Virus record (IMG/VR): IMGVR_UViG_2814123113_000001
Span: 1-64,000 of that record
DNA length: 64,000 bases
Direction: 5' to 3' (one strand)
From: a virus
Taxonomy: Duplodnaviria > Caudoviricetes
In this document: piece after piece, positions 1,200 to 62,608 of the stretch
Numbering within the stretch: position 1 is the stretch's first letter
Layout: every line of letters starts with the position of its first letter
Notes under the pieces: model-generated
The model's database searches: none
What the model saw: only the letters and a program-made list of their open reading frames with translations
Told to the model about the DNA's origin: nothing
Translations under genes and position numbers: made by a program

Positions 1200-1248
1200 G
1201 ATGCTTCTCGCTATGAGACGAACGGCGTTCGCCTTGCTTAAGATCGCG

Positions 1249-1569
1249 TCAGGGATCGACGCGGCCTCGGTGGCCAATGCGGCCGTCGACCCGCCCGTCC
1301 AGGCCGTCGACGTGCTGGAGGATCTTCGGCGCGTAGGTCGTACCGAAGTAGAGCGCCAGGCCCGCAAGCATGATCACATCCCCCCAGCCGGGGGCCTGCC
1401 CCTGGAACCGAGGGATCGCCGCGAGCACGAAGCCCGCGGCGAACATCGCGATCCCGATGCGCTGGAGCAGGGTCAGAAGCCCCCCCCAGCCCATCAGCAA
1501 CAGACAGAGCACCACGACCAGAAGGCCGCCGGCGACCACGGAGAGGTACTGTGGCATCTGTGACAGCAT
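1249..1569 (-). CDS. Holin-like membrane protein (3 TM)
   Basis: Hydrophobic, upstream of endolysin; clear homolog at 53134-53499. Confidence 0.65.
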   Translation of the reverse strand: MLSQMPQYLSVVAGGLLVVVLCLLLMGWGGLLTLLQRIGIAMFAAGFVLAAIPRFQGQAPGWGDVIMLAGLALYFGTTYAPKILQHVDGLDGRVDGRIGHRGRVDP

Positions 1570-1572
1570 GGC

Positions 1573-4365: not shown

Positions 4366-4830
4366 TCAGGCCATGCTGTCGGCCAGGATCACCAGGTCGC
4401 GGAACTGCTGGTCAGACATGCCCAGCGCCGCCTTCGTGCTCTCGGTTGTGACGCCGGCGGTGACGAAGTTCTGCGCACGCGCATACTCGGCCAGGGCCAG
4501 AACGCTCTTCGGATGCGGCAGCGATGCGAACGCCGCTCGTATCGCTGCGTCGAGATTGTCAAAGCCCGGCCAGGGCGTGATCAGCGCCGCCTTGAGGATC
4601 TTGTGCATGGGCACTTCGGCCGGCAGAGGCGTGACGGTGACCGGCGGCGCCTCGAGGTCGATCGACCACGCCCCATCGGCGCCCAGGCGCGCGAACGCGC
4701 CCGGCTCCACCGCCGGCGGCTCGGTCTCTACAAAGGTCCAGCCCGGCAGGCACGGCGCGGCCAGGTCGACGACTTCGATCGCGTCGGCGAGCAGATAGCC
4801 ATGCGCATCCAGTTTGACGGTCCACATCAC
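4366..4830 (-). CDS. Tail fibre assembly/chaperone-like protein
   Basis: Directly downstream of the tail fibre; WTFVETEPP and GAW motifs resemble fibre chaperones. Confidence 0.55.
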   Translation of the reverse strand: MMWTVKLDAHGYLLADAIEVVDLAAPCLPGWTFVETEPPAVEPGAFARLGADGAWSIDLEAPPVTVTPLPAEVPMHKILKAALITPWPGFDNLDAAIRAAFASLPHPKSVLALAEYARAQNFVTAGVTTESTKAALGMSDQQFRDLVILADSMA

Positions 4831-10900: not shown

Positions 10901-11753
10901 GGCCCGCCATGAAGGCGACATCGATCGACAGGGCGTCGCTTTCCAGCGGCGCGGCCCGGGTGATCCATCCCGAGGCCTGCTTCACGGGAAGCGCGAGGCT
11001 ATCCTCGGCAGGCGTTCGCTGAAACCAGATCGGCTCCAAACCCTCGTCATGGCGCGTCGACCAGCGGACATTGACGCCCTCGAAGCTGGCAAGATCGGTC
11101 TGGCCAATCCGCGCGCCCTCATGATCCACCCACGTCACGCAGGGTTGGAACATCTGACGCAGATAGACCGTGTTGTTGACCGTGACCGTGTACCAGTTCG
11201 CGCAACGCGGCGGATAGATCCGCCGACGCCCCATGATGATCGGGATCGCCTCATGCGGTCGCGCGGCGTTCGATCCGGCGTCCAGCGAATAGCGCTGCTC
11301 GCGACCCGCGACCTCAGGCTGTTTGATCGGCGCGATGGCGTTGACGGCGATCATGCCGCCGACATTGACAGCCGCTGTCGCACCAGCGGCCGCCAAGCCC
11401 GACAAGCCGATCGCGCCAGGAACCCAGACCGACAGCGCGATGACAGCGATCTGCAACAGGGTGCGAACGGCGTTCGACCCTGCCATCGGCGCAACCTCGA
11501 GCACGACCGTGTCATCGGCGCGAGGCCGCAAGCCGGACCAATCGCCTGCTGAAACCTTGACGCCGGAGACGGAGATCCGAACCCAAGGCCGCAGGGCCGG
11601 GTCCAGCGTGCCAGAGACCTCAAGCGAGACCACCATCTCCGCCAGGCTCAAACCCTCGGGCAACGCGTGCAGGCTGACCTCTTCCTCGCGCGCGAGCGGG
11701 CGAGGCGAGACCACCAGCGAGGTCTTGCGATCCATCAGGGCGTCAACCGCCAT
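7926..11753 (-). CDS. Tail tip / host-specificity protein (TipJ-like, with gpI-like N-terminal domain)
   Basis: 1275 aa; IPIIMGRRRIYP, SRNPA, coiled-coil repeats near the C-terminus; follows NlpC/P60. Confidence 0.85.
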   Translation of the reverse strand: MAVDALMDRKTSLVVSPRPLAREEEVSLHALPEGLSLAEMVVSLEVSGTLDPALRPWVRISVSGVKVSAGDWSGLRPRADDTVVLEVAPMAGSNAVRTLLQIAVIALSVWVPGAIGLSGLAAAGATAAVNVGGMIAVNAIAPIKQPEVAGREQRYSLDAGSNAARPHEAIPIIMGRRRIYPPRCANWYTVTVNNTVYLRQMFQPCVTWVDHEGARIGQTDLASFEGVNVRWSTRHDEGLEPIWFQRTPAEDSLALPVKQASGWITRAAPLESDALSIDVAFMAGLFETKESSGNPKNRSVTFEFRYGPRGGDPSSAAPCPFAGAGGLLTFTRDKLDSYRLGWEWPVARGQYDVHVRRITNEESNNPKISDELTWICIRSFRDEAPVRDLASKPWIELELQASDQLNGVPNDFNFIATSIVPEATATGPGDLIVSRNPADLFLAASYPPMSDVELDDDERAFAAIADWRATCEQQGWMCDLAEASEMSVGELLQRTAAAGRARPTLDYGALSVVVDWEKPLPRQMFTPRNVSGFRGDLVYPAPVHALRVRFANAEKDFADDVVTVFGQKPDGTFYDLDTADKYERVEVRDKVDADAVVLEGARMLAERVLRPEKFSFEQDVEYLTIREGDRAWLAHHVALVGEITGRVRARVTDESDPSLKGLRLDELVTMVAGRSYDLAWRPSADAALEVFPLETLPGQSDIVWFAAPIPSIGDQPLPGDQVTVFDHAVELLDVVVDRIAPKEGLKASITCVPYAEALQSVGDEPIPAYRTGVSRPPTLGGAVVVRRDGRAIEKVIDALAEGVSQAGNGVDIIAEQVGAIEAASRKAQLDILDARMKALGDLKAFEAILRQVLSGKPLGEVIAEQRQVLIDTNVVVGNNTAAIASEAVARQTAISAEAYQRTVLATDYNGFKATTSAELISISTATSTVAANLATVSTDYNGFKASASATLISVSNATSATAASLAALESTVAANKASADAGLLTVASDVSALSTQYTSLDATVAANKASADSSLSVLTTNVSAAASQITTLQSNVTGLSATVSSQASTLADVASKVAVARFVVEAAASGGRPARLALYSDSLGGSNIALSAAKIYFGDNTVLDDASDTLRSDLGSAAYIQAWGEAFGASSDLLLWFGPNGIGHWAASRSNAYFYLAKTAPYLGGSAVPTGGGSGGFEVNLSTPLVSGNRFGTGSATTDTVTATTSGGDGTVTYSWAYLSGASFSPSSTTGDAVAFTGSITALGQTLDGYWRVTARDSAGHVAFADVRILISENS

Positions 11754-12225
11754 AAACGTAAGCCCCCTCCAACCGGGACCCCCAGAACGCCTCGCCGGGC
11801 TCAGCCTCGTCGAGCGAGGCCGTGCGCGCGCCGCAGCCCTTCTGGGTGTGAATGAACCGTCGGCCGCCCAAGGACGTGCCGACATGCGTGGGAAGCCCAG
11901 CCACCAGAAACAGCAGCAGGGCGAAGCGCGGATAGCCGTTCTCGTCGGGCTCAACGCGGCGCCAGAGCGAGGCCTGAGCCCGCACGAAGGCGGCGATGTC
12001 TTCGGCGTCTCGACGATCGACGCCGCGGTAAAGATCGTCAGGCTCAGGCACCCGCACGCCAAGCTCGTGCTCCAGGATCAGGTAGTGCTGACCCCGGCAG
12101 TCACAGCCCCGGAACGACCGCCCATGCTCCACGAACGGGACCGGCATGTAGCGAGCGATCCAGGCGTCATCGCCCGCGATCGTCGGCGCGCGGCGAACGG
12201 CGTTCGCCCCTTTTGGCGGCTTCAT
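11743..12225 (-). CDS. NlpC/P60 tail-associated peptidase (gpK-like)
   Basis: PFVEHGRSFRGCDC, THVG and FIH catalytic motifs. Confidence 0.85.
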   Translation of the reverse strand: MKPPKGANAVRRAPTIAGDDAWIARYMPVPFVEHGRSFRGCDCRGQHYLILEHELGVRVPEPDDLYRGVDRRDAEDIAAFVRAQASLWRRVEPDENGYPRFALLLFLVAGLPTHVGTSLGGRRFIHTQKGCGARTASLDEAEPGEAFWGSRLEGAYVYGG

Positions 12226-24933: not shown

Positions 24934-24934
24934 A

Positions 24935-32419: not shown

Positions 32420-32423
32420 GACC

Positions 32424-41772: not shown

Positions 41773-41775
41773 GCC

Positions 41776-41832
41776 GGAGGCCCGGCCAGGGCTCGGCGTA
41801 GCCCTACCGCCCTGGCCGGGCCTCCTCTTTTT
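41776..41832 (+). terminator. Strong intrinsic terminator
   Basis: 17-bp perfect stem GGAGGCCCGGCCAGGGC/GCCCTGGCCGGGCCTCC followed by TCTTTTT. Confidence 0.85.
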
Positions 41833-41883
41833 CAAACCCTCAGAGAACACATCGCCCCGAGGGCGATAGCGCCGAGGTCAATC

Positions 41884-49795: not shown

Positions 49796-51442
49796 ATGAC
49801 CATGCGCGTTGCGATCTACGCCCGATATTCCGATGACAAGCAAAACCCCGGCTCGATCGCTGACCAGCTCGCGCTCTGCCGTCGTCATGCGCGGGCGCGC
49901 GGCTGGACGATCATCAACGAATACACCGACGCGGCGATCTCGGCCGATCTGCTGGTCACCCGGCCGGGCGCTCAGGCCCTGCTACGCGCGGCCGAGACCG
50001 GAGCCTTCGACCTGATCCTGGTCGAGCACCAGGACCGCCTGTTCCGGAACCTCGCCGAGAACGCGACCGCCTTCAAACGCCTGACCTATTTTGGCGTCGG
50101 CATCGCGACCCTGGCCAAGGATCGCCTCCAGTTGATGGACATCGCGATCGAAGGCCTGATGTCCGAGCTGTACCTTCAGAACCTTTCGGACAAGACCAAG
50201 CGCGGCATGCACTCGAACGGCGAGAAGGGCCTTTCGATGGGCGGCCGCGTCTATGGCTACCGCTCCACGCCCGGCGGCGAGATGACGATTGTCGAGGATG
50301 AGGCGGCGATCGTACGAACGGCGTTCGGGCTCTACAACGAGGGCTGGAGCTGCCGCGACATCGCCGACCACTTCAATAAGGGCGACACACCCGGCCCGAC
50401 GGGAGGCCTCTGGAACGCCTCGGCTTTCAGCGGATCGCGGCAGCGCGGGAACGGCATCCTGCGGTGCGAGCTGTATGTCGGCGTCAAGGTCTGGAACCGG
50501 TTCGATAAGAGCAAGGACCCCGACACTGGTAAGCGCGTGCAGACGATCAAGCCCGAGGGCGAGTGGAAACGAACGCCGGTTCCGCAGCTCCGGATCATCG
50601 ACGACGCGACCTGGTCTACCGCCCAAGAACGGCTGGCCATCACGTCGGAGACCAAGCCCAGCACCCTGGCCAATCAGGCTAAGCCCGGCGTCTTCACCGG
50701 GCTGCTCAAGTGCGGCGCCTGCGGTGAGAACTACATCGTCGCGGGCCGCGCCCGGCTGCAATGCAGCACGATCCGGAACAAGGGCCGCCACGCGTGCGCC
50801 AATGGCCGCACGGTCGGCCGGGCCGCAGTCGAAGACCGCATCCTGACCGGCCTGAAAGATCGCCTGCTTAGCCCCGAGGCCGCCGCGATCTATGTCCGCG
50901 CCTATCACGAGCGCTGGAAGGCCAACGCCGGCGATCGGCGAGCCCGCCGCGCGCCGCTTGAACGTCGCCTCGCCGAGACCCAGCGCAGGATCGACCGCGC
51001 GCTGAACGCCATCCTCGACGGCTACGCCAGCGCCGACCTAAAAACGCGCCTGCAGAGTCTAGAGGATGAGCGCGACGCCCTTAAGCACGAGCTGGCCAGC
51101 ATCGGCGACGACGATCCGATCACGCTGCATCCCGGCCTCGCCGACGTCTATGCGCAGCGGATCAGCGACCTTCAGGAGAGGCTCGCGGCGTACACCAAGG
51201 GCAAGCCCTCGCCCAAGGACCGCCAAGCCATCGCGGCCGCCCGCGCCCTAGTCGATCGCATCGAAATCATGCCGACGTCTCACGCGCGCGGCGCGCACGT
51301 CGAGATCACCCTGTTCGGGGACCTCGCGCGCTTCCTACGTCCTGACCTCAACGAGGCTCAATGTATGAGCCTGCTGGTGGCGGGGGCGGTGTGCAAATCG
51401 GAACCCACTTCTGTTCTGGGTCTGGTCCGCGTGGCGGTTTAG
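49796..51442 (+). CDS. Large serine recombinase (integrase)
   Basis: AIYARYSDDKQ, RPG, DRLFRN; recombinase domain; GLLKCGACG zinc ribbon; coiled coil. Confidence 0.95.
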   Translation: MTMRVAIYARYSDDKQNPGSIADQLALCRRHARARGWTIINEYTDAAISADLLVTRPGAQALLRAAETGAFDLILVEHQDRLFRNLAENATAFKRLTYFGVGIATLAKDRLQLMDIAIEGLMSELYLQNLSDKTKRGMHSNGEKGLSMGGRVYGYRSTPGGEMTIVEDEAAIVRTAFGLYNEGWSCRDIADHFNKGDTPGPTGGLWNASAFSGSRQRGNGILRCELYVGVKVWNRFDKSKDPDTGKRVQTIKPEGEWKRTPVPQLRIIDDATWSTAQERLAITSETKPSTLANQAKPGVFTGLLKCGACGENYIVAGRARLQCSTIRNKGRHACANGRTVGRAAVEDRILTGLKDRLLSPEAAAIYVRAYHERWKANAGDRRARRAPLERRLAETQRRIDRALNAILDGYASADLKTRLQSLEDERDALKHELASIGDDDPITLHPGLADVYAQRISDLQERLAAYTKGKPSPKDRQAIAAARALVDRIEIMPTSHARGAHVEITLFGDLARFLRPDLNEAQCMSLLVAGAVCKSEPTSVLGLVRVAV

Positions 51443-51547: not shown

Positions 51548-51892
51548 CTAGGGTCGTTTTCGGCTTTCGGGCGGGGGCGTACAGCGCGCCTGGCCCTGCT
51601 CGAGTCGGCGCCAGCCGCGCCGCGCCCAGGCCGGCCAGTCGGTCTCACGCCACTGCAGGAAGGCGACGGCCGCCTCGTCGCCCAGGGCCGCGACGATCGC
51701 CTGATAGACCAGATCCCGATCAACGCCGGCGGGCGGCAGAGGCTCAGCCTCGAGGGGCGCGCAGATCGCCGCCGGCGGAGGATCCGGCGCGGCCGGGCTT
51801 GAATGCGTCGACTTCCCAGGCCTGCCGGTAGTCGAGCACGCCGCCAGCAGCAGGCTGACGGCCAGGAACGGCAGCAGTCGGTGTTTTCGCAT
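51548..51892 (-). CDS. Rz1-like outer-membrane lipoprotein spanin (prophage 2)
   Basis: Lipobox LLAA-C after MRKHR; overlaps the Rz 3' end. Confidence 0.75.
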   Translation of the reverse strand: MRKHRLLPFLAVSLLLAACSTTGRPGKSTHSSPAAPDPPPAAICAPLEAEPLPPAGVDRDLVYQAIVAALGDEAAVAFLQWRETDWPAWARRGWRRLEQGQARCTPPPESRKRP

Positions 51893-52178
51893 GGTTGATC
51901 GCGCGGCCGACGGCCACGCCCTTCTGAAAGCTGCTGGAGATCTCGGCGGCGCAGGACCTGTCGGCCTGGCCCCGATCGTCGGCTTCGCCGGCGGCACGGT
52001 CCAGGATCTGGCGATCGCGGTCCGCGACGTCGCGGCGGAGGTTGTATTCAATGGCCGCCTGGTCCTTGGCCGCCAGGCGCGCTGTCACCAGCTGGTCATG
52101 CTGGCGCAAGACCAGGAGGCCAAGCGCGATCGCCAGCGCCCAGGGCGCGGCGCGCAGCGCCATGCCGGAGGCGATCAT
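51744..52178 (-). CDS. Rz-like inner-membrane spanin (prophage 2)
   Basis: N-terminal TM and coiled coil; ATGA-coupled to the endolysin. Confidence 0.75.
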   Translation of the reverse strand: MIASGMALRAAPWALAIALGLLVLRQHDQLVTARLAAKDQAAIEYNLRRDVADRDRQILDRAAGEADDRGQADRSCAAEISSSFQKGVAVGRAINHAKTPTAAVPGRQPAAGGVLDYRQAWEVDAFKPGRAGSSAGGDLRAPRG

Positions 52179-52621
52179 CGGCGCACCTCGAGCAGACCGT
52201 CGCGCGGGCCTTTGCCGTCGATCGTCAGCAGCTCGCCGCGCCGGCGCGGATCAAAGCTGATGTGGACCCACACGCCATGCTCATGGATCAGCTGGTCAAA
52301 GCTGATCGTCGACCGCGCCAGCCAGTCGGCCACCTGCAGGGGCGAACCGAAGCCCGGGCAGACGAAGTCGACCGCCCAGCCCTGGCTGTGCGCAGAGGCC
52401 TTGGCGGCGCCCGGCGTCTTGGCGTTCAACGCCGGCGAGCGGTAGCAGCTGGTGATGGTGATCGGCTTGCCGCCCAGGCGCTCGCGAACGCGCTCCATCT
52501 GAGCGGCGACCACCTTCAGGCGGGCGATGATGTCGGGGGGCGGGGTGTTGTCGATGCGCTCGCGCTTGGCGCGGGCGCTGACCGTCATTTCGGCCAGCGT
52601 GAAATGCGCGCTCATCTGCAT
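52175..52621 (-). CDS. Endolysin, peptidase M15A family
   Basis: HFTLAEM, ITSCYRSPALN, SAHSQGWAVD, WVHIS. Confidence 0.9.
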   Translation of the reverse strand: MQMSAHFTLAEMTVSARAKRERIDNTPPPDIIARLKVVAAQMERVRERLGGKPITITSCYRSPALNAKTPGAAKASAHSQGWAVDFVCPGFGSPLQVADWLARSTISFDQLIHEHGVWVHISFDPRRRGELLTIDGKGPRDGLLEVRR

Positions 52622-52680
52622 GGCGCGGTCTCCTGGGTTAGGTTATCGGGAGCTGAAGGCGGTGATCGCCCGACCGGTCT

Positions 52681-53070
52681 TTAGACCTTGGCCAAGTACT
52701 CAGGATCGTCGAGCAGGGCTTGGGTGTTTCGCTGGACCTGGCCTAACTGATTGACCAGGTCTGTGGCGCGCGGATCCCCCGGCAGGCTGTCGAGCTCCCG
52801 CATCAGGCTGTAGAACTTCCGCGCCAGCGGATGACTTTCAAGCCGGAAGAGCTCGATCTTTGTTCCCTTGCGCCGATAGGGGAAGCCGATCGCCTGGCCG
52901 ATCCGCTCGCGCGCATCCTCGCAGTCTTGCGCCTCTTCCGCGCTGGCGTGGTCATGGTCACACCCCACAACAAAGACACCGCCGGCGTCACTTTCCGCCG
53001 TGAGATGCCAAAGCCCGGAAGGCTCGCCGGCTTCGTTCTTCCGCTCGAGGGGCTGACAGATCCAGGTCAT
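52681..53070 (-). CDS. Hypothetical protein inserted in the lysis cassette
   Basis: 129-aa ORF with CDHDH..EEAQDC. Confidence 0.6.
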   Translation of the reverse strand: MTWICQPLERKNEAGEPSGLWHLTAESDAGGVFVVGCDHDHASAEEAQDCEDARERIGQAIGFPYRRKGTKIELFRLESHPLARKFYSLMRELDSLPGDPRATDLVNQLGQVQRNTQALLDDPEYLAKV

Positions 53071-53133
53071 GGACAGGCCTTGTATTGATGTTGACGGGAA
53101 AAGAGCGATGCGAACGCCGTTCGCACGCGAGGC

Positions 53134-53499
53134 TTAGAAGCCGCGCCGCCGGCGTCGATCGACAGTCAGAGCGCGGGTGATGGCGGTGGCGTCGATGTCG
53201 ATCGCGCCGACGTGGATCCGGCTGTCGATCTTGCCGTCCAGGCCGTCCGCGTGGCGCAGGATCTTGGGCCCATAGGTCGACCACAGGAACACGGCCAGGC
53301 CGGCCAGCATGATCAGATCGCCCCAGCTGGGCGGGTGACCGCTGAACCGCGGAATCGCGGCCAGCACCATGCCGGCTGCGAAAAGCGCCAGGCCCAGGCG
53401 CTGGGCGCGGCCCAGCAGGCCGCCCCAGCCCAGCAGCAGCAGACAGACCGTCGCGATCAAGATCCCCGCCGCGACGATGGAAAGGCCCAGGACGATCAT
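53134..53499 (-). CDS. Holin-like membrane protein (prophage 2)
   Basis: Homolog of 1249-1569 (WGGLL, AAIPRF, WGD.IMLAGL, PKIL.H.DGLDG). Confidence 0.65.
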   Translation of the reverse strand: MIVLGLSIVAAGILIATVCLLLLGWGGLLGRAQRLGLALFAAGMVLAAIPRFSGHPPSWGDLIMLAGLAVFLWSTYGPKILRHADGLDGKIDSRIHVGAIDIDATAITRALTVDRRRRRGF

Positions 53500-53502
53500 G
53501 GC

Positions 53503-53880
53503 TTAAGCCTCCCCGCCGCCGATCCGCAGGCCGCCGACCTCAAACTTGATCAGCTTCAGCGGATCGCCCGCATACTTCGCCGCCGCCTGGGCCAAGCCCG
53601 CCAGCACGATCATGCCGAACAGGCCCGTCAGGAACGAGAAGGCGCTGCCGAACTCGCCCGGCAGCTTGCCCCAGGGCCACACGGCCCCCAGGCCCGCCAC
53701 GATCGCCGGCGCGACCCACAGCGCGCTGGCCAGGCCGCCCAGGACGCTCAGCGCCTTGCCCCGCACCGTCAGCTTTTCGCCGAACGCCAGCGACAGCACC
53801 GCGCCGGCGACGCCGGGCGCGTAGGGCGTGAGCTTGCCCAACACCGCAATCAGTTGCGGATCCCCTGAATTGTCGGCCAT
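53503..53880 (-). CDS. Holin-like membrane protein (prophage 2)
   Basis: Homolog of 1573-1953 (MADN.GDP, PYAPG, KYAGDP.KLIKFE.GGLRIGG). Confidence 0.65.
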   Translation of the reverse strand: MADNSGDPQLIAVLGKLTPYAPGVAGAVLSLAFGEKLTVRGKALSVLGGLASALWVAPAIVAGLGAVWPWGKLPGEFGSAFSFLTGLFGMIVLAGLAQAAAKYAGDPLKLIKFEVGGLRIGGGEA

Positions 53881-53936
53881 CGGCCGCCCCTCCTTAAGCT
53901 GAAAACAGCGCCGCCATGGGCGCAAAGGCGTTCGGG

Positions 53937-54359
53937 CTAGTTGCCGAGCGCCTGCAGCCAGGGCCCCGGAAACCAGTTGCCGCGATGATCGTGCGCGCCG
54001 CCTCGCGCGTGACCCTCTTCGTGACGGCGCAGCGCCGCGCAGACAGGACCGATACGCCCCAAGGACGGATCGCAGTCGCGCGAGATCAGGATTTCGTCGG
54101 TCGCCGGGTCATAGCAAGCGACCACGCGCCGAGGCGGCGGTAGCTGGCCAAGCCGACGCTCGCACGCCCGGCCCGCGTCATTCAGGTAAAGCCAGCGCGC
54201 CGTGTAAGGCCCGGCGTCCCAACGGGGCGGCGGCGCGGATGCTAGATCACCCGCAACAGCCGCCCCAGGACAACCCAGAGCGCCAGCGATAAGACAGCAG
54301 CCAACAACAGCCCAGAGGGCGGCCTGATTCGCATAGCGTCCCGCTTTTCCGGTCTTCAT
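53937..54359 (-). CDS. Exported Cys-rich protein with an HExxH motif
   Basis: Signal-like hydrophobic stretch; RHEEGHARG; start uncertain. Confidence 0.5.
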   Translation of the reverse strand: MKTGKAGRYANQAALWAVVGCCLIAGALGCPGAAVAGDLASAPPPRWDAGPYTARWLYLNDAGRACERRLGQLPPPRRVVACYDPATDEILISRDCDPSLGRIGPVCAALRRHEEGHARGGAHDHRGNWFPGPWLQALGN

Positions 54360-54423
54360 TCCCGGAATATTGGGATTACAGCCCGCTTTTAGCAATAGCG
54401 CCGTCAGGCGCTACCCTGACGGC

Positions 54424-54627
54424 ATGGTCACCGACTGGTCTGAAGTCGCGCGCAACACCCTGCGCGCCGAAATGGTTCGCAAGGGCGTCACAACGGCCGA
54501 ACTGGCGCGTCGCATAGGCGAGGTCGAAAAAACGGTCGCCAACAAGATCAGCGGCGGCAAGTTCGGCGCAGCGTGGTTGCTGATGTGCCTGGCCGCGATC
54601 GGGGCCAAGCGGATCGAACTGGACTAG
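54424..54627 (+). CDS. DUF6471-like HTH protein
   Basis: LRAEMVRKGVT..ELA...NKISGGKF.A.WLLMCL.AIG. Confidence 0.75.
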   Translation: MVTDWSEVARNTLRAEMVRKGVTTAELARRIGEVEKTVANKISGGKFGAAWLLMCLAAIGAKRIELD

Positions 54628-54941
54628 GCCGCCTCAGACCAGAGCCCCGGCAAGGCCGCGATGGCCGTCGCCTCGTCGGGAAACAGCAACAGGGCCGTCA
54701 GAGCCCAGCGGCCATCTTCCCCCCGCCAATCGCCCGCAAACACCCGCGTCGGCGTCGCGGGCTCGGGATCGACCTCATAGCCCGCCGCCCCGGCCGGCAT
54801 GGCCGACCGCGCGACATTCAGGTGATAGCCGACCCGGCCGCCGATGACCGGGCGCTCGCCGGTCACCGGATCGGCCGGGCCATAGATCGGCACGGCGATG
54901 GGCCCGTCGACCAGGGCTGGGTTCCACGTCAAAGCGGTCAT
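54624..54941 (-). CDS. Hypothetical fibre-associated protein
   Basis: GYHLN and PATPTRVFAG; coupled to the fibre gene. Confidence 0.65.
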   Translation of the reverse strand: MTALTWNPALVDGPIAVPIYGPADPVTGERPVIGGRVGYHLNVARSAMPAGAAGYEVDPEPATPTRVFAGDWRGEDGRWALTALLLFPDEATAIAALPGLWSEAA

Positions 54942-56158
54942 GCCGCCCTCCCAAGCTGAGTATCGTCGAGCGCGCCGTAGAGGATCACGCTACGAATAAT
55001 CCCGTCGGCGGGTGTCAGCCCGCCACTGCGATGGCCGATATCCAGCCGATCGAACGGACCGGCCGGGGCCGTGGTCGAGCCCGCGAAGACGGTACCGTCC
55101 CAAGCCGTTTTGACCGACCCGTCCGCCAGCTCGCGCACCGCGCCTCGCAGGATGCGCGCGCCGGGTCGGGTGGCGCTGGTGCCGGTGATGACCCCGCCAC
55201 CGTCCGACGCGCGGGCCGTACCGCCGGCCGACCTTTCCAGCGTGATCCGGCCGCCTGCCGTCTGCGCCAGCGACGCAAAGGTCTGCGTCGCAACCTGGCC
55301 AAGATCGCCCAGGGCTTCGAGCGCGACAGACAAGCTCACCGGCAAGGTCAGCGCCGAGGCGAGATTGACCAAAGGCACGTCGCCCGCCCGCGTAACTGCC
55401 GCGCCGTTGGTCGGGATCGGCGAGCTGACAACCGCACCCTCCTCGAGCTGCGGAAGAATGACGTAGACGCTAGAGCCCGAGTTGATCGAAAGAGCAAAGA
55501 CCCGGGCGGTAGAAACGGGCGATGCTGTTGCGGTCTGGCGCACATAGCCCGACGTCAGGCTGAAAGACGTACCGATATTCTCGCCGCCAATCGACGTTCT
55601 AAAGCGCGCCGCCCCCGAACCGCGAACGTAGGCCGACCACGTGTGAGGGTTGGTGTTGGCCACCGGGCCGGTTATCGAAAGAAACGCCGTCGATACCCCG
55701 AGGCTGTTGTCAACGAAGAAAACCTTGCCTCCGGTGACGACGCCAGAGAGCCCAGCGGCTTCCAGTGCGGCAACGTCATCGACAAGTTGCAGAGTGGCCG
55801 CCGCATCGCCCCCCATTGACACGCCAGCGGTCACCGTCGGGTTGGCGTTGTTGATACCAACCCTGTTCGTCCGCGCGCCCTCGACCAACAGCCCACGATC
55901 CGTGATCCGTGGCGCACCGGCCGGGAACTGGATCAGCTTGCCGCCGCTGTCGTCGAACAGACCCACCGACGCCCGCGAAAACGACCAGCCCGGCACCTTC
56001 TCCGGGCTGGCGTAGCGCGTGCCGCGATACCAGTAGTAGGGCCGCCCACCGGTGCGGGCGCCCTGAAAGTCCATGATGAGCTGCGCGCCCATCTGGATCT
56101 CGGCGAGATACGGCGCTTCCTGGCGCAGCGCCGTGCCGACCGCTCCGGTGATCGCCAT
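54938..56158 (-). CDS. Head/tail spike-fibre protein with LamG-like domain
   Basis: FSRAS, PRIT.RGLLVEGARTN, QLEEG...SSPIPT.GAAVTRAGD. Confidence 0.7.
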   Translation of the reverse strand: MAITGAVGTALRQEAPYLAEIQMGAQLIMDFQGARTGGRPYYWYRGTRYASPEKVPGWSFSRASVGLFDDSGGKLIQFPAGAPRITDRGLLVEGARTNRVGINNANPTVTAGVSMGGDAAATLQLVDDVAALEAAGLSGVVTGGKVFFVDNSLGVSTAFLSITGPVANTNPHTWSAYVRGSGAARFRTSIGGENIGTSFSLTSGYVRQTATASPVSTARVFALSINSGSSVYVILPQLEEGAVVSSPIPTNGAAVTRAGDVPLVNLASALTLPVSLSVALEALGDLGQVATQTFASLAQTAGGRITLERSAGGTARASDGGGVITGTSATRPGARILRGAVRELADGSVKTAWDGTVFAGSTTAPAGPFDRLDIGHRSGGLTPADGIIRSVILYGALDDTQLGRAA

Positions 56159-56161
56159 GGC

Positions 56162-56749
56162 TTAGACCACCAGGTCCAGCTCGATGACGAACTTTTCGCC
56201 CGAGACGGCGGCGAAGCCGTCCAGCGTCGACAGCACCAGCGTCAGCACGCCGTCGGCCGGATCGACCGGTACGCCCTGCGGGTTGCTGAGCACGCCGGCA
56301 TATTCCAGGCAGTTCGACCCGGCCGCCGCGCCCGAAATCGGGTTGGCGAAGTCGATCCAGCCCCGGCGCGAGGCGCGGTTCGCATAGACCAGCGGCGCCG
56401 GGTCATTGTCGGCCGCCGGCAGCGAGGCGGGCAGCGCATCGTTCACGATCGCCCGAAAGCGCACGCTGGCGTTGCTGGTCTGGTCGCGGATCAGGCGGGC
56501 GGCGACGATCAGGCCCGACGGGATGCCGGCGGCCTTGATGTCGAACTGAAACTTGACGTCGCCCGCCGCGCCGATCGCGTCGCCCGCGATATAGGCGGTC
56601 GTGTTGGCGGGCCTCGTGACCTCGCGCTGCAGGGCGACCACTTCGGAGTGGTGAACCGGGCGGTTGACGCCATCGGTCGGGGTGCGAACCGCCATCGGCG
56701 TCGGGAGGCCGGCGGCGTCGAGCATGTTCTTCGATTGCATCACGGACAT
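56162..56749 (-). CDS. Hypothetical structural protein
   Basis: VTRPANTTAYIAGDAIG motif; RBS. Confidence 0.65.
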   Translation of the reverse strand: MSVMQSKNMLDAAGLPTPMAVRTPTDGVNRPVHHSEVVALQREVTRPANTTAYIAGDAIGAAGDVKFQFDIKAAGIPSGLIVAARLIRDQTSNASVRFRAIVNDALPASLPAADNDPAPLVYANRASRRGWIDFANPISGAAAGSNCLEYAGVLSNPQGVPVDPADGVLTLVLSTLDGFAAVSGEKFVIELDLVV

Positions 56750-56764
56750 GGGTTCGGATCTCCT

Positions 56765-58258
56765 TTAGGCGAACCAGGCCAGCCACTGGCCAGAGGCCAG
56801 GGGGCTGTTGAAGGCGGGAAGGTTGATCGCGGGCGGCGCGGCGGCGCTCTCGCCGCCGGTCACCGCGAAGTTGTTGGGCGTGATCTGGCGGACCAGTTCG
56901 GTCGCCCAGGCCGTCGTCAGGCCGGTCTTGCCGGCCGGGCCGGTGACCACGGCGGGCGTTCCGGCCAGGGCCATGACGTACACGTCGCCGCCGCCGGCCT
57001 TCATGACCTCGACGCGATAGTTGGCCGCCAAGCCCGCCGGGACGTAGATGAAATTCAGGCCCTGCGAGGTGCAGGCGATCAGCTTGGCGTTGTCGCCCGC
57101 CGACAGCACGCGGCTCGACGCGGCTTCCTGCACCGTCTGGCCCGTGACGGCCGACAGCGCCGACAGCGCCGCCCCGACCGTGACGTTCGCCGAGGTCGCG
57201 GCGGCGTTGGCCGCGTCGGCCGCCGTGTTGGCGTCGCCGGTGGCGGCGTTGGCGGCGACCGTCGCGGCGGCGGCTTCGGTCGCCCTCTGGTCGGCCAGGG
57301 TCGCCTTGCCGTCCGCGAAGTTGGCCTTGGTGTTGGCCAGGGCGGCGGCGGTGTTGGCGGCGGCTGTGGCCGCGTCGGCCGCTTCCTTGGCCGCCTGCGC
57401 CGCCGAGGCCTTCTGATCGGCCAGGGTGGCCTTTTGGTCGGCCAGGGTCGCCTTGGCGTCGGCGAGCGCGGCTTTCTCGTTGGCGAGGTCGGCCGCGTCA
57501 TCGGCGAGGCCCGCCTTGTCGTTGGCGTTGGTCGCCGCCGCATTGGCCGCCGCCGTGGCCGCGACCGCTGCTGTCGTCGCGGCGATCACATTGGCCGTCG
57601 CCGCGCCGCCGAAATCGGCCGCGTCGTCGGGATCGGTGACCAGGCCGCCGTCACCGACCCAGGCGCCGACCGTCGGCTTGACGCCGCCGCCGCCCGCCCA
57701 GTCGATCACCTTCAGCAGGCGATGCGGCGGGTCGGTCGCATCGTCGGTGGCCAGCACGGGCGTCCAGCCGTTCCACCCCGCCGCGCCGCGCGTGCCGCGA
57801 ACCACGCGGGCTTGGCCCGGGCCACGGATCACTGTCAGGGACGGGCCGCTCGAGGGCAGGGGAAGCGAGGCAAACGAGCCGCCGACCGAAAGCCCGGTCT
57901 GGATCCGCACGGTGGCGACAAACACCACTTCGGTCGTGCCGTCCGGACGGGTCCAGGACTGCTCGACGTCATAGACGCCCTCGGGCCACGTCTGCAGCTG
58001 GGGCGCGCGGACGCGCGGGCCGACCAGGTTGGGCGCGGTCACCTGCAGGCTTCCGTCCTCGGTCGACAGCAGGATGGGCTCCGCCGCCTGGCCCAGGACC
58101 GGCGCGCGGCGCTTGAGCGTCAGATAGTGGTCGTAGGCGGTGATGTCCTCGGCCTGGTCCGCGCCGTCGCCGGCGTCGAGGCGGAAGGCCACGTCGATCA
58201 ACCAGTCGCCGTCCGTAAAGACGGTGTCCCAGGGTTCGCGAAGGGTCGCGGTGCTCAT
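56765..58258 (-). CDS. Tail fibre / appendage protein with coiled-coil repeats
   Basis: BppU-like N-terminus, GWTPVLA...LKVIDWAGG, KATLADQ heptads. Confidence 0.75.
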   Translation of the reverse strand: MSTATLREPWDTVFTDGDWLIDVAFRLDAGDGADQAEDITAYDHYLTLKRRAPVLGQAAEPILLSTEDGSLQVTAPNLVGPRVRAPQLQTWPEGVYDVEQSWTRPDGTTEVVFVATVRIQTGLSVGGSFASLPLPSSGPSLTVIRGPGQARVVRGTRGAAGWNGWTPVLATDDATDPPHRLLKVIDWAGGGGVKPTVGAWVGDGGLVTDPDDAADFGGAATANVIAATTAAVAATAAANAAATNANDKAGLADDAADLANEKAALADAKATLADQKATLADQKASAAQAAKEAADAATAAANTAAALANTKANFADGKATLADQRATEAAAATVAANAATGDANTAADAANAAATSANVTVGAALSALSAVTGQTVQEAASSRVLSAGDNAKLIACTSQGLNFIYVPAGLAANYRVEVMKAGGGDVYVMALAGTPAVVTGPAGKTGLTTAWATELVRQITPNNFAVTGGESAAAPPAINLPAFNSPLASGQWLAWFA

Positions 58259-58335
58259 CAGGGGCTCCAGGCATAGGGGGTCGCGCGAGCGCCTGCGGGC
58301 GTCGCGGTGATGCGAACGGCGTTCGCATGGTTGGG

Positions 58336-58911
58336 TCAGGTCAGGTCGGGCACCGGGTAGTCGGCGAACCGCTGCGAAGCGGCCTCTTCCAGGCCGCCCG
58401 GAATGTCGGCGAGGTCGGGAACCGCTAGGCGAAAGACGCCCGTCCCGCGCCCGCTCGGCAGGGCGATTTCGACCTGTTCGAGGTCATCCCATTCCGGCCG
58501 CCAGGCGAGCCGCGTGAAGGGGTCGCTTTCGAGCTGGTCTGTCAGGTCGGCGCGATGATCCGAGAAGCCGCAATAGCGCCCCGCCGGATCGAACAAGGCG
58601 ACCTTGAGAGGGCGCGCCGCATAAGAGACGCGCTCTAGCTCGATGGCCTTTTCAACTGCCGAGGCCAGCCCGCCAAACATTTGAGCGAGCGCGGCCTGTC
58701 GATCAGCCTCGACCGCGCCCGCCGCGTCGATCGCGGTCAATAGGCCCGAAAAGGCCCGGGCGATAACCTCTTGCAACCGGGCCGCCTCGGCGGCGGCCAG
58801 GCGCTCGCGGTCGGCCTCATCACGGGCCGCCAAGGCCGTCGCGACAGCCTCGGCGACCTTGGCTTCGATCAACGCATTGACCGAGGGCGGATCGGCTTGC
58901 TGCTCTTCCAT
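58336..58911 (-). CDS. Hypothetical protein
   Basis: GGGAGG RBS before MEEQQAD. Confidence 0.65.
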   Translation of the reverse strand: MEEQQADPPSVNALIEAKVAEAVATALAARDEADRERLAAAEAARLQEVIARAFSGLLTAIDAAGAVEADRQAALAQMFGGLASAVEKAIELERVSYAARPLKVALFDPAGRYCGFSDHRADLTDQLESDPFTRLAWRPEWDDLEQVEIALPSGRGTGVFRLAVPDLADIPGGLEEAASQRFADYPVPDLT

Positions 58912-58922
58912 AGCCTCCCTCC

Positions 58923-61900
58923 CTATCCGTTGTAGATCGCGGTCGGCAGCAGCTTCACGCGGTTGACGTACAGTTGCGGCGAGCCGCCCGCCGGGTTGGC
59001 GAAGGCCACGGGCGTGAAGTTGATGTAGCCAGAGCCGGGCAACCGCAGATGCACGGGAACCGTCAGGGTCGCCGGGTTGCCGGGTTCCACAAGCGCGGCG
59101 TCCCAGCCCGTAAAGAACGACCCGAACCCGCCGGTTACAGCCAGGTTGATCCAGAGCCCGACCTGATTGACCAGATCGTCGTTCACAGCCGCGACGTAGT
59201 AGGTCAGTTGGATGGTCGTGTAGGCCCCGCCGCCGCCCCGAACCTCGACGCTGATCCCCGAACCGATCACCGACGGAGATCCGGCCGACGCCGACAACAG
59301 AGTCGAGCCCGACCAATCGACGAGCCCAGCGTTCGCGATGGCCCCGGCCTTGATGTAGTAGGTATCAAGCTGCCCCGTCACCAAGCGGTCGGCCGTGATC
59401 GAGAACGCCGAGACCTTGTCAGCCGTGACCGCGCCAGCCGCCAGCTTGTCGGTCGAGACAGCGCCCGCCCCGATATAAGCCGCGCTCACGGTCCCGGCGG
59501 TCAGCCGGTCGCCCGTAATCGAGCCCGCCGCGATTTCGTTCGCCGTCACCGCCCCGGCCGCCAGCTTGGTGGTCGTGATGGCGCCTGACTGGATTTCCAG
59601 CGCCGAGACAGCGCCCGCCGCGATCTTGCCCGCCGCCACGGACCCAGCCGCCAGCTTGGGGGTCTGGATCGAGCCGTCCTGAATTTGCGTCGTGGTGATC
59701 TGGCCAGCGAGCTTGACCGCCGACAGCGCCGCAATCTGGCTATCGCCGATCGTGCCGGCGATGTCGGCCGCCGCCACGCCCGTGACCCAGGCCCCGGCCA
59801 CATAGCGATAGAGCTTGCCGTCGCTCGCCACGCGGATGGTCTTGGGGCCAGCGTAGCCCGAAGGGCTGGGCAGGGTCGGGAAGACGCCGACCGGTTCAAG
59901 ATCGGCTGGGAAGTCGGCGATTGCGAGACTGTCGGTCGTGGCTGCGAACATGTCCGTCGGCCCGGCCGGGTACCAACCCGAGACGTTGCCCGAACGGTCG
60001 ATCGCTCGAAGGGCGTAGTAGCGGGTTACACCGCTATCCAGACCCGATCGCGTCCAGCCGTTGCGACCGCCGGCGTATCCCGCGACCGTGGCCACCTTCT
60101 GCGCCGTGAACCGATCATTCCAGCTAGATTCCCAAAGCTCGATCTTGTCGAGATCCGCGTCTGACGGATCGGTCCAGCGCAGGAAGATCGAGCCCATGGA
60201 CGTGTCGGCCGAGATCGAAGACGGCGCCCCTGGCGGCGTGGTGTCCGGCGTCAGGGGCGGCGCGACAAGGGCGCCCGTCGTCAAGGTGATCCAGCTGCTG
60301 GGCGTGATCGCCCGTCCAGGCGCGCCGAGGGGCACCAGGCGCACCTGGATCACGCCGGATGACGGCACGCCGGCGGTCACGTTCATGACGCCCGCACTGA
60401 CCTCGCCGGTCGTCGTCGGCGTCACGTCCGTTCCGCCGTTCGGCCGGATCTCGGCGCGGATCTGGGTGATCGCCGCGTCCACCGGCGTTGTCCAGGACAC
60501 GCGAACGGCGGGCAGCGCGCTGCCGTCCGTCCCCGTCAAGGTGATCGCCGTCGCCGCAACACCCGCCAGGGCCAAAGCCCCCACCGGCGTGACGACGGGC
60601 GTCGGCGCAGGCTCTACCGCCAGGGCGCCGAAGCCATAGACCGCATAGGCGGTTTCCTCGAGCACCAGGGTGTTCCGCCAGGCCTCGTCGAGCGCGTACT
60701 TGTTGACGCGCATGGTGACCGTCTCGCCCTTGGTCCGGTAGTCGGACGTGTAGGTGATCCAGTCGCCTTCCTCGAGGCCGGCGAATTTCGGCGGCAGGGT
60801 CAGCAGGCCGCGCCGCTCGAGGCGGGCGCCGCGCCGCTTGATCTCGCCGATCCGCAGCGCCTGGCTGCGATGGCGCACCAGGTTCAGCGAGAGAGAGGTC
60901 TCCTTAGGGCCGCCGTCGCTCAGAATGTCGGTGTCGTCGCGCAGCACGCCCGCCGTCGTCATGGCGAACTTCTGGCTGGGTTCGACATAGCTGACGACCA
61001 CGCTGTTGATGCGGTCCGCGTCGGAAACCTCGTTTGACCACTGCACCGATCCGCCGACGACCAGGTCATCATCGGTGATCGCCGCGACAGGCGACTTGGC
61101 TTGGCCTGGCTCGACCGCCACGCCGCCCTCCGGCTGGATCACAAAGCCGGCCATGGCGTCGGCGAACCACTGCTCAACCGTGTTGAAGTCCTGGTCGGCG
61201 CTGATCACCCCGCCGACACGGTAGCGCGGCTCGTTATAGGTCAGGCCGGTCGCCGTGTCGGTCCAGGAGACGACCTCGTCACAGAGGTTCGCGGGCGCGA
61301 AGACGCGGGCGGGCGGGGCCTCATAGGCCGACAGACCCCGACCCAGCATCAGCGACGCGGGCTGATCCACCTGGTCCAGGAAGTAGACGCCGCGACTGAT
61401 GTTGTATCGGCAGATCTCTGTGTTTTCGGTCCACTCGCGGGTGCTGGGATCATCCCAGCGATGCGCACCTGAACCGCCCGGGACCGTGCTGTCCTTGCGC
61501 GGGTCGTAGCAGAGCAGGCCCTTGACCACCCAAAGGAAGCTGGGGCGCCCCGTGGTCCAGATCGGGTTCTTCGCATCGGGGGCGTCGGCCTTGTAGGCCA
61601 CGATCACCCGCGCCACGCCTTGCAGCGCGCCCGTGGCGGTCGCTGGGCCCAGGCCCGAGAGGTCTGAGGGCAGCGCGGCGTCGGTCGCCGTCCCGGCGCG
61701 CCAGTAGACGCGCAGCTGGTTGTTATAGCCGGCGACAAAGCCGTCACCCGAAAAGGCGCGATAGTTGTCGCCCTCATAGAAGCCGACCAGGCTGTGGCAG
61801 CGGTGATCAGCCACGGCGATCACCAAGACGTTCCAGTCCGTGCCGTTCGCACCGCCGAACCAATAGGCGTCAACAAGCGAGCCGCCCGTCCCGGCCTCGC

Positions 61901-62213
61901 CCACGATCGCTTCGCGGGGAACCTCGCCCACCGACAGCTGCTGGACCGAGGCCTGCCGATCGCGCGCGGCGGCGGCCTTGGAGCCGCTCACCTTGGACAG
62001 CGCGAAGGTGGCGGCGGCCTGATAGAGGATCGAGCCGTAGACGACCAGGAAGTTGCCGACCGCCGCCGCGATACCGGCCCCGGCGACGACATTGATCGCC
62101 GAGACAATCAGCGTGGTGATTGGGTCGGCATGCGCCATCGTCGGCGCCGCCAGGGCCACGACCGCCGTGACCGCGAAGACGCGCAGGCGCGCAGCGTGCT
62201 TTGGGGAGATCAT
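58923..62213 (-). CDS. Tail tip / central fibre protein (J-like, FN3 domains)
   Basis: VKGLLCYDPR, AANLCDE-like motif, FN3 DTTPPGAP...YYALRAIDRSGNVS, AGAVTA.K repeats. Confidence 0.85.
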   Translation of the reverse strand: MISPKHAARLRVFAVTAVVALAAPTMAHADPITTLIVSAINVVAGAGIAAAVGNFLVVYGSILYQAAATFALSKVSGSKAAAARDRQASVQQLSVGEVPREAIVGEAGTGGSLVDAYWFGGANGTDWNVLVIAVADHRCHSLVGFYEGDNYRAFSGDGFVAGYNNQLRVYWRAGTATDAALPSDLSGLGPATATGALQGVARVIVAYKADAPDAKNPIWTTGRPSFLWVVKGLLCYDPRKDSTVPGGSGAHRWDDPSTREWTENTEICRYNISRGVYFLDQVDQPASLMLGRGLSAYEAPPARVFAPANLCDEVVSWTDTATGLTYNEPRYRVGGVISADQDFNTVEQWFADAMAGFVIQPEGGVAVEPGQAKSPVAAITDDDLVVGGSVQWSNEVSDADRINSVVVSYVEPSQKFAMTTAGVLRDDTDILSDGGPKETSLSLNLVRHRSQALRIGEIKRRGARLERRGLLTLPPKFAGLEEGDWITYTSDYRTKGETVTMRVNKYALDEAWRNTLVLEETAYAVYGFGALAVEPAPTPVVTPVGALALAGVAATAITLTGTDGSALPAVRVSWTTPVDAAITQIRAEIRPNGGTDVTPTTTGEVSAGVMNVTAGVPSSGVIQVRLVPLGAPGRAITPSSWITLTTGALVAPPLTPDTTPPGAPSSISADTSMGSIFLRWTDPSDADLDKIELWESSWNDRFTAQKVATVAGYAGGRNGWTRSGLDSGVTRYYALRAIDRSGNVSGWYPAGPTDMFAATTDSLAIADFPADLEPVGVFPTLPSPSGYAGPKTIRVASDGKLYRYVAGAWVTGVAAADIAGTIGDSQIAALSAVKLAGQITTTQIQDGSIQTPKLAAGSVAAGKIAAGAVSALEIQSGAITTTKLAAGAVTANEIAAGSITGDRLTAGTVSAAYIGAGAVSTDKLAAGAVTADKVSAFSITADRLVTGQLDTYYIKAGAIANAGLVDWSGSTLLSASAGSPSVIGSGISVEVRGGGGAYTTIQLTYYVAAVNDDLVNQVGLWINLAVTGGFGSFFTGWDAALVEPGNPATLTVPVHLRLPGSGYINFTPVAFANPAGGSPQLYVNRVKLLPTAIYNG

Positions 62214-62608
62214 CAGCCCGCGCTCCACGCCAGAACCATGGCGGATCTCGGCAAGCGCTCTTGTCCGCGCTCGCCGGGCCCCACCAGGGTGTCACCTTCA
62301 ACGATGGCCAGCTGCAGCCGGCCTTCCAGATCCCGCCAGCCGGCGACATCGCCGCGCTGGGCATGCCCAGGGGCGACCGGCGTCAAGACGGCGCCCACCG
62401 CCGCCTCCAGGCCGCCCAGGCTGGCGATCAGCCGGGTCGCCTCCGCAGCCGATCGCCATTGGCCGCGATAGACCGCCAAGGGATCCTCGCCCGTCAGCGC
62501 CTGGACCGCGCCCGCCGCGAAGGTGACGCAGTCGTGCTCTCCCCATGCGAACGGCGTTCGCATGTGCGACGCCACAAACAAGTGCAGCGCCTCGTAATCG
62601 CGGACCAT
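62213..62608 (-). CDS. NlpC/P60-like tail protein (DUF6950-like)
   Basis: PFAWGEHDCVTFAA and AQRGDV. Confidence 0.8.
   Translation of the reverse strand: MVRDYEALHLFVASHMRTPFAWGEHDCVTFAAGAVQALTGEDPLAVYRGQWRSAAEATRLIASLGGLEAAVGAVLTPVAPGHAQRGDVAGWRDLEGRLQLAIVEGDTLVGPGERGQERLPRSAMVLAWSAG

Follow-up and report, generated by a model that had tools for sequence, protein, structure and literature searches.

The stretch of DNA analysed here, referred to as the window, comprises 64,000 nucleotides of a tailed virus (positions 1 to 64,000 of IMG/VR record IMGVR_UViG_2814123113_000001) and corresponds to G000:C1:3524150-3588149 of a bacterial genome that consists of a single contig of 4,144,051 bp with 67.1% G+C. 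Gene calling and family scans placed it in an 89-kb block of two tandem tailed prophages, which runs ~26 kb past the window end. Prophage 1 occupies approximately positions 1-51,500, and prophage 2 extends from approximately 51,700 to 95,700 in window-equivalent coordinates, with two thirds of it outside the window. Both have a long minus-strand gene block followed by a plus-strand block that ends in a large serine recombinase. Most of their content is unrelated, with only 8 matching protein pairs. This report concerns a 13-bp palindrome, CGAACGSCGTTCG, that recurs across both prophages, and an orphan protein with a winged helix-turn-helix (wHTH), a ParB_N domain and a second helix-turn-helix (HTH), here called wHTH-ParB, which both prophages encode and which we propose as the reader of the palindrome.

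The window holds 15 perfect copies of CGAACGSCGTTCG, compared with a mean of 0.02 in dinucleotide-shuffled sequences, none of 100 of which reached 15. Every start position given for these copies in an initial annotation of the window was confirmed, as were its four one-mismatch copies (4527, 26680, 42145 and 44849) and a 21-bp palindrome around 62548; a fifth one-mismatch copy, at 34945, was added. The whole genome contains 22 perfect copies, and the reversed control pattern occurs once. With any centre base allowed, 23 copies were observed in the genome, 21 of them in the block, where Markov models predict 2.1 (order 3) or 2.7 (order 5) genome-wide and 0.03-0.04 per element. Sites past the window lie at window-equivalent positions 67129, 72421, 76977, 81711, 89104 and 90080 (six in all). 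One-mismatch copies number 28 genome-wide and 5 in the two-prophage block. Equal density across the host chromosome had been set beforehand as the outcome that would speak against a phage-wide site system. Density was not equal: 21 of the 22 perfect copies fall within the 89-kb block (G000:C1:3525368-3614241) and the chromosome outside it is at chance level, so this test does not refute the system. The lone outside copy (G000:C1:2827730-2827742), an intergenic one with a further imperfect inverted repeat around it (cgcttg...gcaagcg), probably reflects chance or belongs to a terminator-like hairpin.

The positions of the sites are given in Table 1. The initial annotation had placed 12 of the perfect copies inside genes and in all three reading frames. 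The three frames were confirmed (xN[A/G]VR, ERRS and RT[A/P]F), but the count was not, as a gene call based on G+C content at third codon positions (GC3) gives 11 of 15; the open reading frames (ORFs) around 1219 and 37614/37831 are uncertain in that call. The 12 sites of prophage 1 show no flank preference, and all nine sites of prophage 2 are extended by (A/G)TG...CA(Y) to a 17-bp palindrome. The prophage 2 counterpart of site 1219 is site 53111, which lies 3′ of a homologous gene (53134-53499). In prophage 1, the site pair 37614/37831 marks the boundary between the minus- and plus-strand gene blocks; a promoter and terminator scan of 37300-38500 found none.

Table 1. Palindromic sites and selected genes of the two prophages, in window coordinates. 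G230 is the genome whose sites were aligned with those of prophage 1; site types are defined in the text.
Feature	Position	Strand	Remarks
A-type site CGAACG-G-CGTTCG	1219..1231	.	prophage 1 left end, 18 bp 3′ of gene 1249-1569(-)
A-type site	11464..11476	.	within 1378-aa gene 7926-12062(-); 13/13 bases kept in G230
A-type site	12194..12206	.	intergenic (12062/12222); kept in G230
A-type site	17532..17544	.	within gene 17414-17686(-); 13/13 in G230, flanks only 73% identical
A-type site	19280..19292	.	within gene 18949-19320(-); kept in G230
A-type site	23183..23195	.	within gene 21821-23302(-); kept in G230
A-type site	25255..25267	.	3′ end of large terminase gene 25183-27399(-); kept in G230
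A-type site	31354..31366	.	within helicase-like gene 29951-31594(-); kept in G230
A-type site	37614..37626	.	first of pair, within uncertain ORF 37510-37914(-); kept in G230
A-type site	37831..37843	.	second of pair, 217 bp from first; kept in G230
A-type site	46086..46098	.	intergenic, 525 bp downstream of ParB-like gene; 13/13 in G230, flanks 85%
A-type site	50315..50327	.	within prophage 1 serine recombinase gene; kept in G230
A-type site	53111..53123	.	prophage 2, ATG..CAC flank, intergenic
A-type site	58313..58325	.	prophage 2, ATG..CAT flank, intergenic
A-type site	62548..62560	.	prophage 2, core of 21-bp palindrome, near start of gene 62213-62608(-)
One-mismatch copy	4527..4539	.	
One-mismatch copy	26680..26692	.	
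One-mismatch copy	34945..34957	.	absent from the initial annotation
One-mismatch copy	42145..42157	.	
One-mismatch copy	44849..44861	.	within ParB-like gene
Orphan wHTH-ParB_N-HTH protein, 746 aa, prophage 1	43321..45561	+	proposed site reader
138-aa ORF overlapping stop of ParB-like gene	45546..45962	+	possible partner; matches no known family
Portal and large terminase genes, prophage 1	23314..27399	-	evidence for tailed phage
HTH_3 (Cro/CI-type) regulator, prophage 1, 159 aa	39692..40171	+	not common to prophage 2
Large serine recombinase, prophage 1 right end	49796..51442	+	
Prophage 2, left part	51744..64000	-	continues to window-equivalent ~95700

Among 400 other genomes of the host's bacterial family, most hold 0-3 copies of the motif, as they do of the reversed control (0-3). 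Eight of them hold 7-16 copies, which makes nine motif-rich genomes when G000 is counted. In the six genomes examined, drawn from five genera, the copies are grouped into one cluster per genome, 25-51 kb long and with sites a few kb apart; five of these genomes were searched whole, and the sixth, G204, was covered in part (the first 50 kb of its contig). Three genomes flagged as unpublished (G025, G393 and G279) are counted only in the family-scan tallies.

An all-against-all BLASTP comparison of nine sequence sets, representing eight motif-bearing elements, identified wHTH-ParB as the sole protein family present in all eight; the next families occur in five. Other candidate readers were rejected. 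The serine recombinase is found in only four of the eight elements, and the DUF6948 module is missing from three of five prophage 2-like relatives and is not among the families in at least four of the eight. A CI-like repressor was likewise discarded, as the prophage 2 CI-like gene is present in only one of the five prophage 2-like relatives that keep the site family.

The last of these candidates belongs to a broader alternative, namely that the sites are operators or "stoperators" of a CI/Cro-type immunity repressor, as in cluster A mycobacteriophages or the SPbeta MrpR/SPBRE system. Stoperators are many dispersed copies of a short site over a temperate phage genome, some of them intragenic; cluster A mycobacteriophages carry dozens of such 13-bp sites, whose specificity diversifies among relatives, and the diversified site specificity described below resembles immunity groups. 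Stoperators, however, are targets of the immunity repressor that lack symmetry and follow the direction of transcription, whereas the sites described here are palindromic and show no orientation bias. Furthermore, prophages 1 and 2 have the same site but unrelated repressor-type proteins (HTH_3, 159 aa, versus HTH plus S24, 269 aa), and no repressor family is common to the eight elements. We consider this explanation quite improbable.

The same comparison bears on the idea that the motif is the target of a DNA modification or restriction activity (a methyltransferase site, an anti-restriction decoy or a self-marking signal), possibly one recruited by the ParB-like protein. Prophage 1 encodes a methyltransferase and a helicase-methyltransferase, and ParB-fold/methyltransferase fusions are described as common in prophages in a 2025 survey (PMC12704722). 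Methyltransferase families, however, are present in only 4-5 of the eight elements, and the wHTH-ParB family itself has no methylase domain. A methylase site in the form of a fully specified 13-bp palindrome would also be long, and phage genomes tend to be depleted of restriction targets, not enriched in them. A modification target is thus very unlikely.

In the prophage 1 protein, wHTH models place a winged helix resembling those of MarR/ArsR regulators at residues ~6-55. ParB_N (PF02195) is matched at 28.3 bits in prophage 1 and 46.0 bits in prophage 2 (curated cut-off 26.3), and in 7/7 aligned family members. The HTH_ParB Pfam match is below threshold (17.6 vs. 22.6 bits); an HTH after the CTPase domain is nevertheless indicated by phmmer alignments to 6t1f and 1vz0, which span it, and by helices 199-262 of a structural model, which match the HTH of ParB, KorB and Noc. 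Boxes I-III are conserved in family alignments (PNPxNPR, GERRWRA and LVENxQRxDL). The GERR motif occurs in 41 of 50 members, with seven carrying the variants GARR, GECR, GTRR, GHRR or GEQR and two without a pattern match. The best sequence matches in the PDB are Caulobacter ParB (6t1f/7bm8, 3.8e-16), Spo0J and Noc. The core fold was modelled with a predicted local distance difference test score (pLDDT) of 87.6, with ParB-CTPgS (7bm8), KorB-KorA (8qa9) and Noc as top Foldseek matches, and its N-terminal domain matches MarR-type regulators. With ParB_N, boxes I-III and an HTH following the CTPase domain, the protein is a member of the ParB/Spo0J superfamily. The prophage 2 counterpart is encoded at window-equivalent ~89680-91305, its start placed by alignment.

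The wHTH-ParB protein does not qualify as a canonical partition ParB of a ParABS system. The ParA-binding motif (L/F/I)G(K/R)G(L/F/I) is present in 0/50 members, and of six AAA_31 matches in the genome none lies in the prophage block, in a scan for ParA that covered AAA_31 and not PF01656/CbiA. The KorB-specific Pfam family is absent among the hits of the protein, and the PDB sequence search lists ParB and Noc, not KorB. Public annotations read "ParB N-terminal domain-containing" or "ParB/RepB/Spo0J family", and the named homologues come from Caulobacter strains. Among the cultured phages in INPHARED there was no full-length homologue, only ParB_N-level matches at ~30% identity. In a library of 1.84 billion proteins, the best 150 representatives at 50% identity all have E<=2e-62 and 148 of them begin within the first 10 profile positions, indicating that the wHTH-ParB family is large.

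The remainder of the protein is less well defined. The full-length model has a pLDDT of 57, the C-terminal 450 residues are poorly modelled, and no Pfam match was found past residue 240. Most members have two copies of an (R)YxTxWLNxP-like motif in the variable C-terminal part (residues ~380-400 and ~560-580 of the prophage 1 protein), which may be a docking motif for a partner. Both prophages have a short ORF of ~130-140 aa over the stop codon of the ParB-like gene (L005:11292-11684 in prophage 2; Table 1 for prophage 1), and a similarly placed ORF with high GC3 accompanies ~30 of 50 members. These ORFs fall into several unrelated sequence families, one with nine members; a hidden Markov model of this family recruits no other downstream ORFs. 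The stop-overlapping ORF could encode a KorA/BisC-like partner.

The association between site and protein was also examined starting from the protein. A search of IMG/VR with the family alignment gave 49 loci, and IMG/VR, the bacterial family and the order together supplied 50 distinct members whose match to the profile begins within its first 13 positions. Site types were called de novo as the commonest 6-N-6 palindrome at each locus, with no prior pattern. In 43 of the 50 members, the flanking DNA contains one dominant 13-bp palindrome in at least two copies, with 2-14 copies observed per locus against order-3 Markov expectations of 0.004-0.13. Together with its presence in all eight elements, this supports the link to the protein family of 43321-45561 that the initial annotation had proposed as a co-occurrence check. 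Five types were found: A (CGAACGnCGTTCG, 20 members with at least two copies), G (CGAGCGnCGCTCG, 9 members), C6 (CGAACCnGGTTCG, 11 members), CAC (CGCACGnCGTGCG, 2 members; G247, with 11 CAC-type copies, was left out of this tally) and T2 (CAAACGnCGTTTG, 1 member). Each variant type represents one symmetric change from the A-type half-site CGAACG. Five members have a single copy (G074, G189 and L036 on 10-15 kb, G348 on 25.7 kb, and G100). Of IMG/VR proteins that match only part of the profile, most of them generic ParB_N-HTH only, 27 of 30 loci lack any such site; the exceptions are L044 (three A-type), L046 (two A-type) and L057 (one G-type).

Symmetric variants keep self-complementarity, which is what one would expect if the palindromes acted as nucleic-acid structures, either DNA cruciforms or RNA hairpins, with no dedicated sequence-specific reader. 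A 6-bp stem with a 1-nt loop is impossible, however, leaving at best a 5-bp stem and a 3-nt loop. In addition, copies within an element are identical in sequence, beyond what mere pairing would require, and changes are concerted across the element, and either strand can have G or C at the centre, irrespective of gene orientation. These properties make a purely structural role exceedingly improbable.

The family scan detected a wHTH-ParB member in 30 of 401 genomes (E<=1e-46). Members were found in 9/9 genomes with at least seven A-type sites and in 10/13 with at least five, and members in genomes with few A-type sites mostly carry another site type. Across the order, the host's family accounts for 10 genomes with a member out of 60 scanned, and five other families for one out of 240; that single genome, G604, has six A-type sites. 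G176 has four A-type sites genome-wide, and the locus of its member contains nine C6-type and no A-type sites; a second element or remnant with A-type sites probably lies elsewhere in this genome.

Site type follows the protein tree. On an IQ-TREE phylogeny of 33 rows, type changes 9 times, compared with a mean of 14.1 after shuffling (0/200 shuffles as low); Fitch parsimony on a FastTree phylogeny of 50 rows gave 11 changes against a shuffled mean of 20.2 and minimum of 15 (0/5000 as low). A-type members are spread across the tree, and types G and C6 both have several origins. A tight clade (support 100/99) mixes A-type members (prophage 2, L060 and G149) with G-type members (L037, G080a and G188). 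Both kinds keep the TG..CA flank, which argues for a concerted change of all sites in the array at a single position. The G-type relative G080a has a half-A/half-G hybrid as its homologue of site 62548; in G149 site 62548 is conserved at 13/13 bases between flanks of 77% identity. Within this clade, A members have a wHTH strongly different from that of G members, and one residue of the ParB HTH also switches. Candidate A/G swap columns elsewhere in the protein alignment were rejected, since they correspond to the in-gene site itself: in several clades this site encodes a conserved peptide, ANGVR, just ahead of GERR, and in the G-type sister clade the peptide is replaced. The phage-wide protein-loading site system suggested by the initial annotation thus gains support from host density, from co-occurrence and from type variants that track the protein tree.

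Genomes with two members provide a further comparison. Five carry members of differing type: G080 (G and C6), G399 (CAC and C6), G149 (A and C6), G296 (A and CAC) and G352 (C6 and A). Within each element of these genomes site type is uniform, and no double carrier other than the genome studied here has one type in both members. These genomes bear on the possibility that a host protein conserved in the bacterial family reads the sites, and that phages accumulate sites to exploit it. The near confinement of members to one bacterial family, at the frequencies given above, is compatible with such a host reader; a single host reader, however, does not explain two differently typed prophages in one cell, each uniform, and the palindrome is at chance level in the chromosome. 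The five genomes argue instead that the reader is encoded by the element, and we regard a host reader as highly improbable.

Conservation of the sites exceeds that of their surroundings. Between prophage 1 and G230, 12 sites are identical at 156/156 bases, compared with 93.4% identity in 150-bp flanks (p 3e-5); between prophage 2 and G149, six alignable sites are identical at 78/78 bases with flanks at 77.1% (p 2e-9). Judged by these alignments, the sites are under purifying selection as DNA. They are also more evenly spaced than random placement predicts in 11/11 elements tested, some of which are related to one another (coefficient of variation 0.17-0.68; combined p 4e-8). Spacing averages ~2-7 kb, with a median of ~5 kb, and elements typically have 5-12 sites and up to 14. 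For 24 of 43 typed members, the distance from the start of the ParB-like gene to a cognate site is at most 700 bp, compared with 9.1 members expected; in prophage 2, the gene has site 89104 upstream of it and contains site 90080.

At the level of sequence, the palindromes are thus localised to the prophages, selected and regularly spaced, and they co-occur and co-vary with the wHTH-ParB family. Sites that are palindromic, element-specific, selected, usually placed with one copy at the gene and co-varying with the protein behave like parS, the KorB operator OB or the Noc-binding sites NBS. We propose, with a probability of about 0.72, that the palindromes are cognate parS/OB-like nucleation sites of the orphan ParB-family protein encoded by each prophage.

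Several observations weigh against this proposal. Three genomes with at least five A-type sites (G240, G186 and G003) show no family member, although two of these are incomplete or fragmented. L030 and L038 have no enriched palindrome in the 13-15 kb at hand, and G100 has its single copy, of CAC type, in 40 kb. The G116 locus (L212-L213) is mixed (three C6, two A and one CAC); this element may be recombinant or transitional. No column in the recognition helices of the wHTH or the ParB HTH is consistent with a specificity code over all switches, and L031 (C6-type) and prophage 1 (A-type) have identical wHTH helices. Because no helix residue explains the site switches, the link between protein and site is correlative, and shared phage ancestry could account for part of the clustering of types on the protein tree. 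Finally, the C-terminal two thirds of the protein fold poorly, so that a dimerisation domain there is at most putative.

The ParB-like gene sits in the plus-strand block that ends with the recombinase, which could be a lysogeny-side or delayed-early operon. The serine recombinases of the two prophages (that of prophage 2 at window-equivalent 94044-95666) are 58% identical, as would fit integration in succession at attachment sites that are related or were regenerated. A 660-bp module encoding a DUF6948 protein and a TrAA12-like fragment is 92% identical between the prophages (41172-41838 and window-equivalent 86477-87035), which points to a recent exchange of DNA between phages in one host. 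The gene that immediately follows the HTH_3 regulator (40174-40956) encodes a 260-aa WYL-TerB fusion, an unusual domain pair for a phage early region, and a 96-aa ORF at 42508-42798 has a weak acyl-carrier-protein (PP-binding) match (24.3 bits, cut-off 20.8). The late strand of prophage 1 encodes a helicase, an 845-aa helicase-methyltransferase fusion and a 501-aa methyltransferase at 29951-37016; these helicase and methyltransferase families recur in 4-5 of the eight motif-bearing elements.

For the proposed nucleation sites, conserved CTP boxes, the lack of a ParA and many evenly placed sites are best fitted by loading of a clamp at each site followed by spreading, and the binding, CTP switching, spreading and function of wHTH-ParB are predicted on this basis. 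A wHTH-ParB dimer would recognise the 6-1-6 palindrome; bound there, it would take up CTP, close into a clamp and then slide off the site along the DNA. With sites spread evenly every ~2-7 kb, clamps would cover the phage genome over its full 45-50 kb and leave other DNA essentially free. We give an even chance to long-range transcriptional control as the output, whether by silencing as in KorB, directed at cognate phage DNA that is resident or incoming, which we favour, or by BisD/VirB-like activation. Marking or compaction of phage DNA ranks below this and seems unlikely. A more speculative and similarly doubtful idea is that the A, G, C6, CAC and T2 types, together with clade-specific flanks, are specificity groups of a CTP-clamp system for self/non-self discrimination. 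The clamp expressed by a prophage would load on its own or on incoming DNA with a cognate array and silence or sequester it, providing a second, CI-independent layer of superinfection immunity or prophage silencing, and conflict among related phages would drive the repeated single-step switches in specificity. Under such a scheme the two tandem prophages, both of type A, would cross-regulate.

Several characterised systems share features with the proposed one. KorB of the IncP plasmid RK2 has about 12 OB sites on its plasmid. It is also a partition protein with the ParA-type IncC, and its clamp is locked by KorA or TrbA; in the prophages we found no ParA-type gene (AAA_31 scan), ParA motif or KorB-specific Pfam match, and wHTH-ParB differs further in its added N-terminal winged helix, its half-site and its residence in integrated prophages. 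The likeness lies in a ParB-CTPase-fold clamp and a 13-bp 6-1-6 palindrome with a central G/C, a geometry that the initial annotation had invoked as an analogy and that is borne out by the OB oligo in PMC11790492. The same paper describes sites dispersed over the element and long-range silencing by sliding (PMC11790492). The KorB-KorA structure 8qa9 gives the best template modelling (TM) scores to our core model. Several dispersed operators, a 13-bp palindrome and a free centre, as in KorB-type systems, are all found here.

Noc of Bacillus is a chromosomal protein whose N-terminal helix targets the membrane. Like the wHTH-ParB family, it is a ParB paralogue without a ParA role that has many palindromic sites (NBS) over its replicon, and its fold matches our core model (7ol9, 7nfu); wHTH-ParB is instead phage-borne, with a wHTH at its N-terminus. 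In phage N15 the centromere sites (IR1-4) are dispersed in the genome. Its SopB is a temperate-phage ParB-family protein with several separate palindromic sites that can silence nearby promoters (PMC7205306), but N15 is a plasmid prophage with SopA and uses these sites for partition. The phages described here integrate by serine recombinases or other integrases and have no detected ParA.

BisD of ICEclc in Pseudomonas is a ParB-like CTP clamp that acts as an orphan and is carried by an integrated mobile element. As described in PMC12409273, it has an extra domain absent from ParB, recognises an odd palindrome with a free centre base, spreads ~50 kb, regulates promoters of the element and activates with BisC. 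It differs in having two functional bisS sites 2 kb apart, a 23-bp site and a ParA-like gene nearby (PMC12409273). The extra domains of BisD and wHTH-ParB are likened by their presence, not by homology. VirB is another characterised system of the same clamp logic. Orphan ParB-fold proteins are enriched on prophages and uncharacterised according to the 2025 survey, which also reports that the ParB fold can bind ATP or GTP (PMC12704722). In full-text literature searches, no account of ParB-type sites scattered over integrated prophages was found.

One prophage family of orphan ParB-CTPases now has a predicted cognate site, a genome-wide map of that site and natural specificity variants. The closest named homologues are from Caulobacter, which hints at a host genus with well-developed ParB-CTP biology. 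Switches among the five single-step site types occurred repeatedly and independently between closely related proteins, which makes these types a natural data set on the evolution of ParB specificity. If the function is silencing or immunity, clamp-based long-range regulation of the kind represented by KorB, BisD and VirB would extend to integrated temperate phages.

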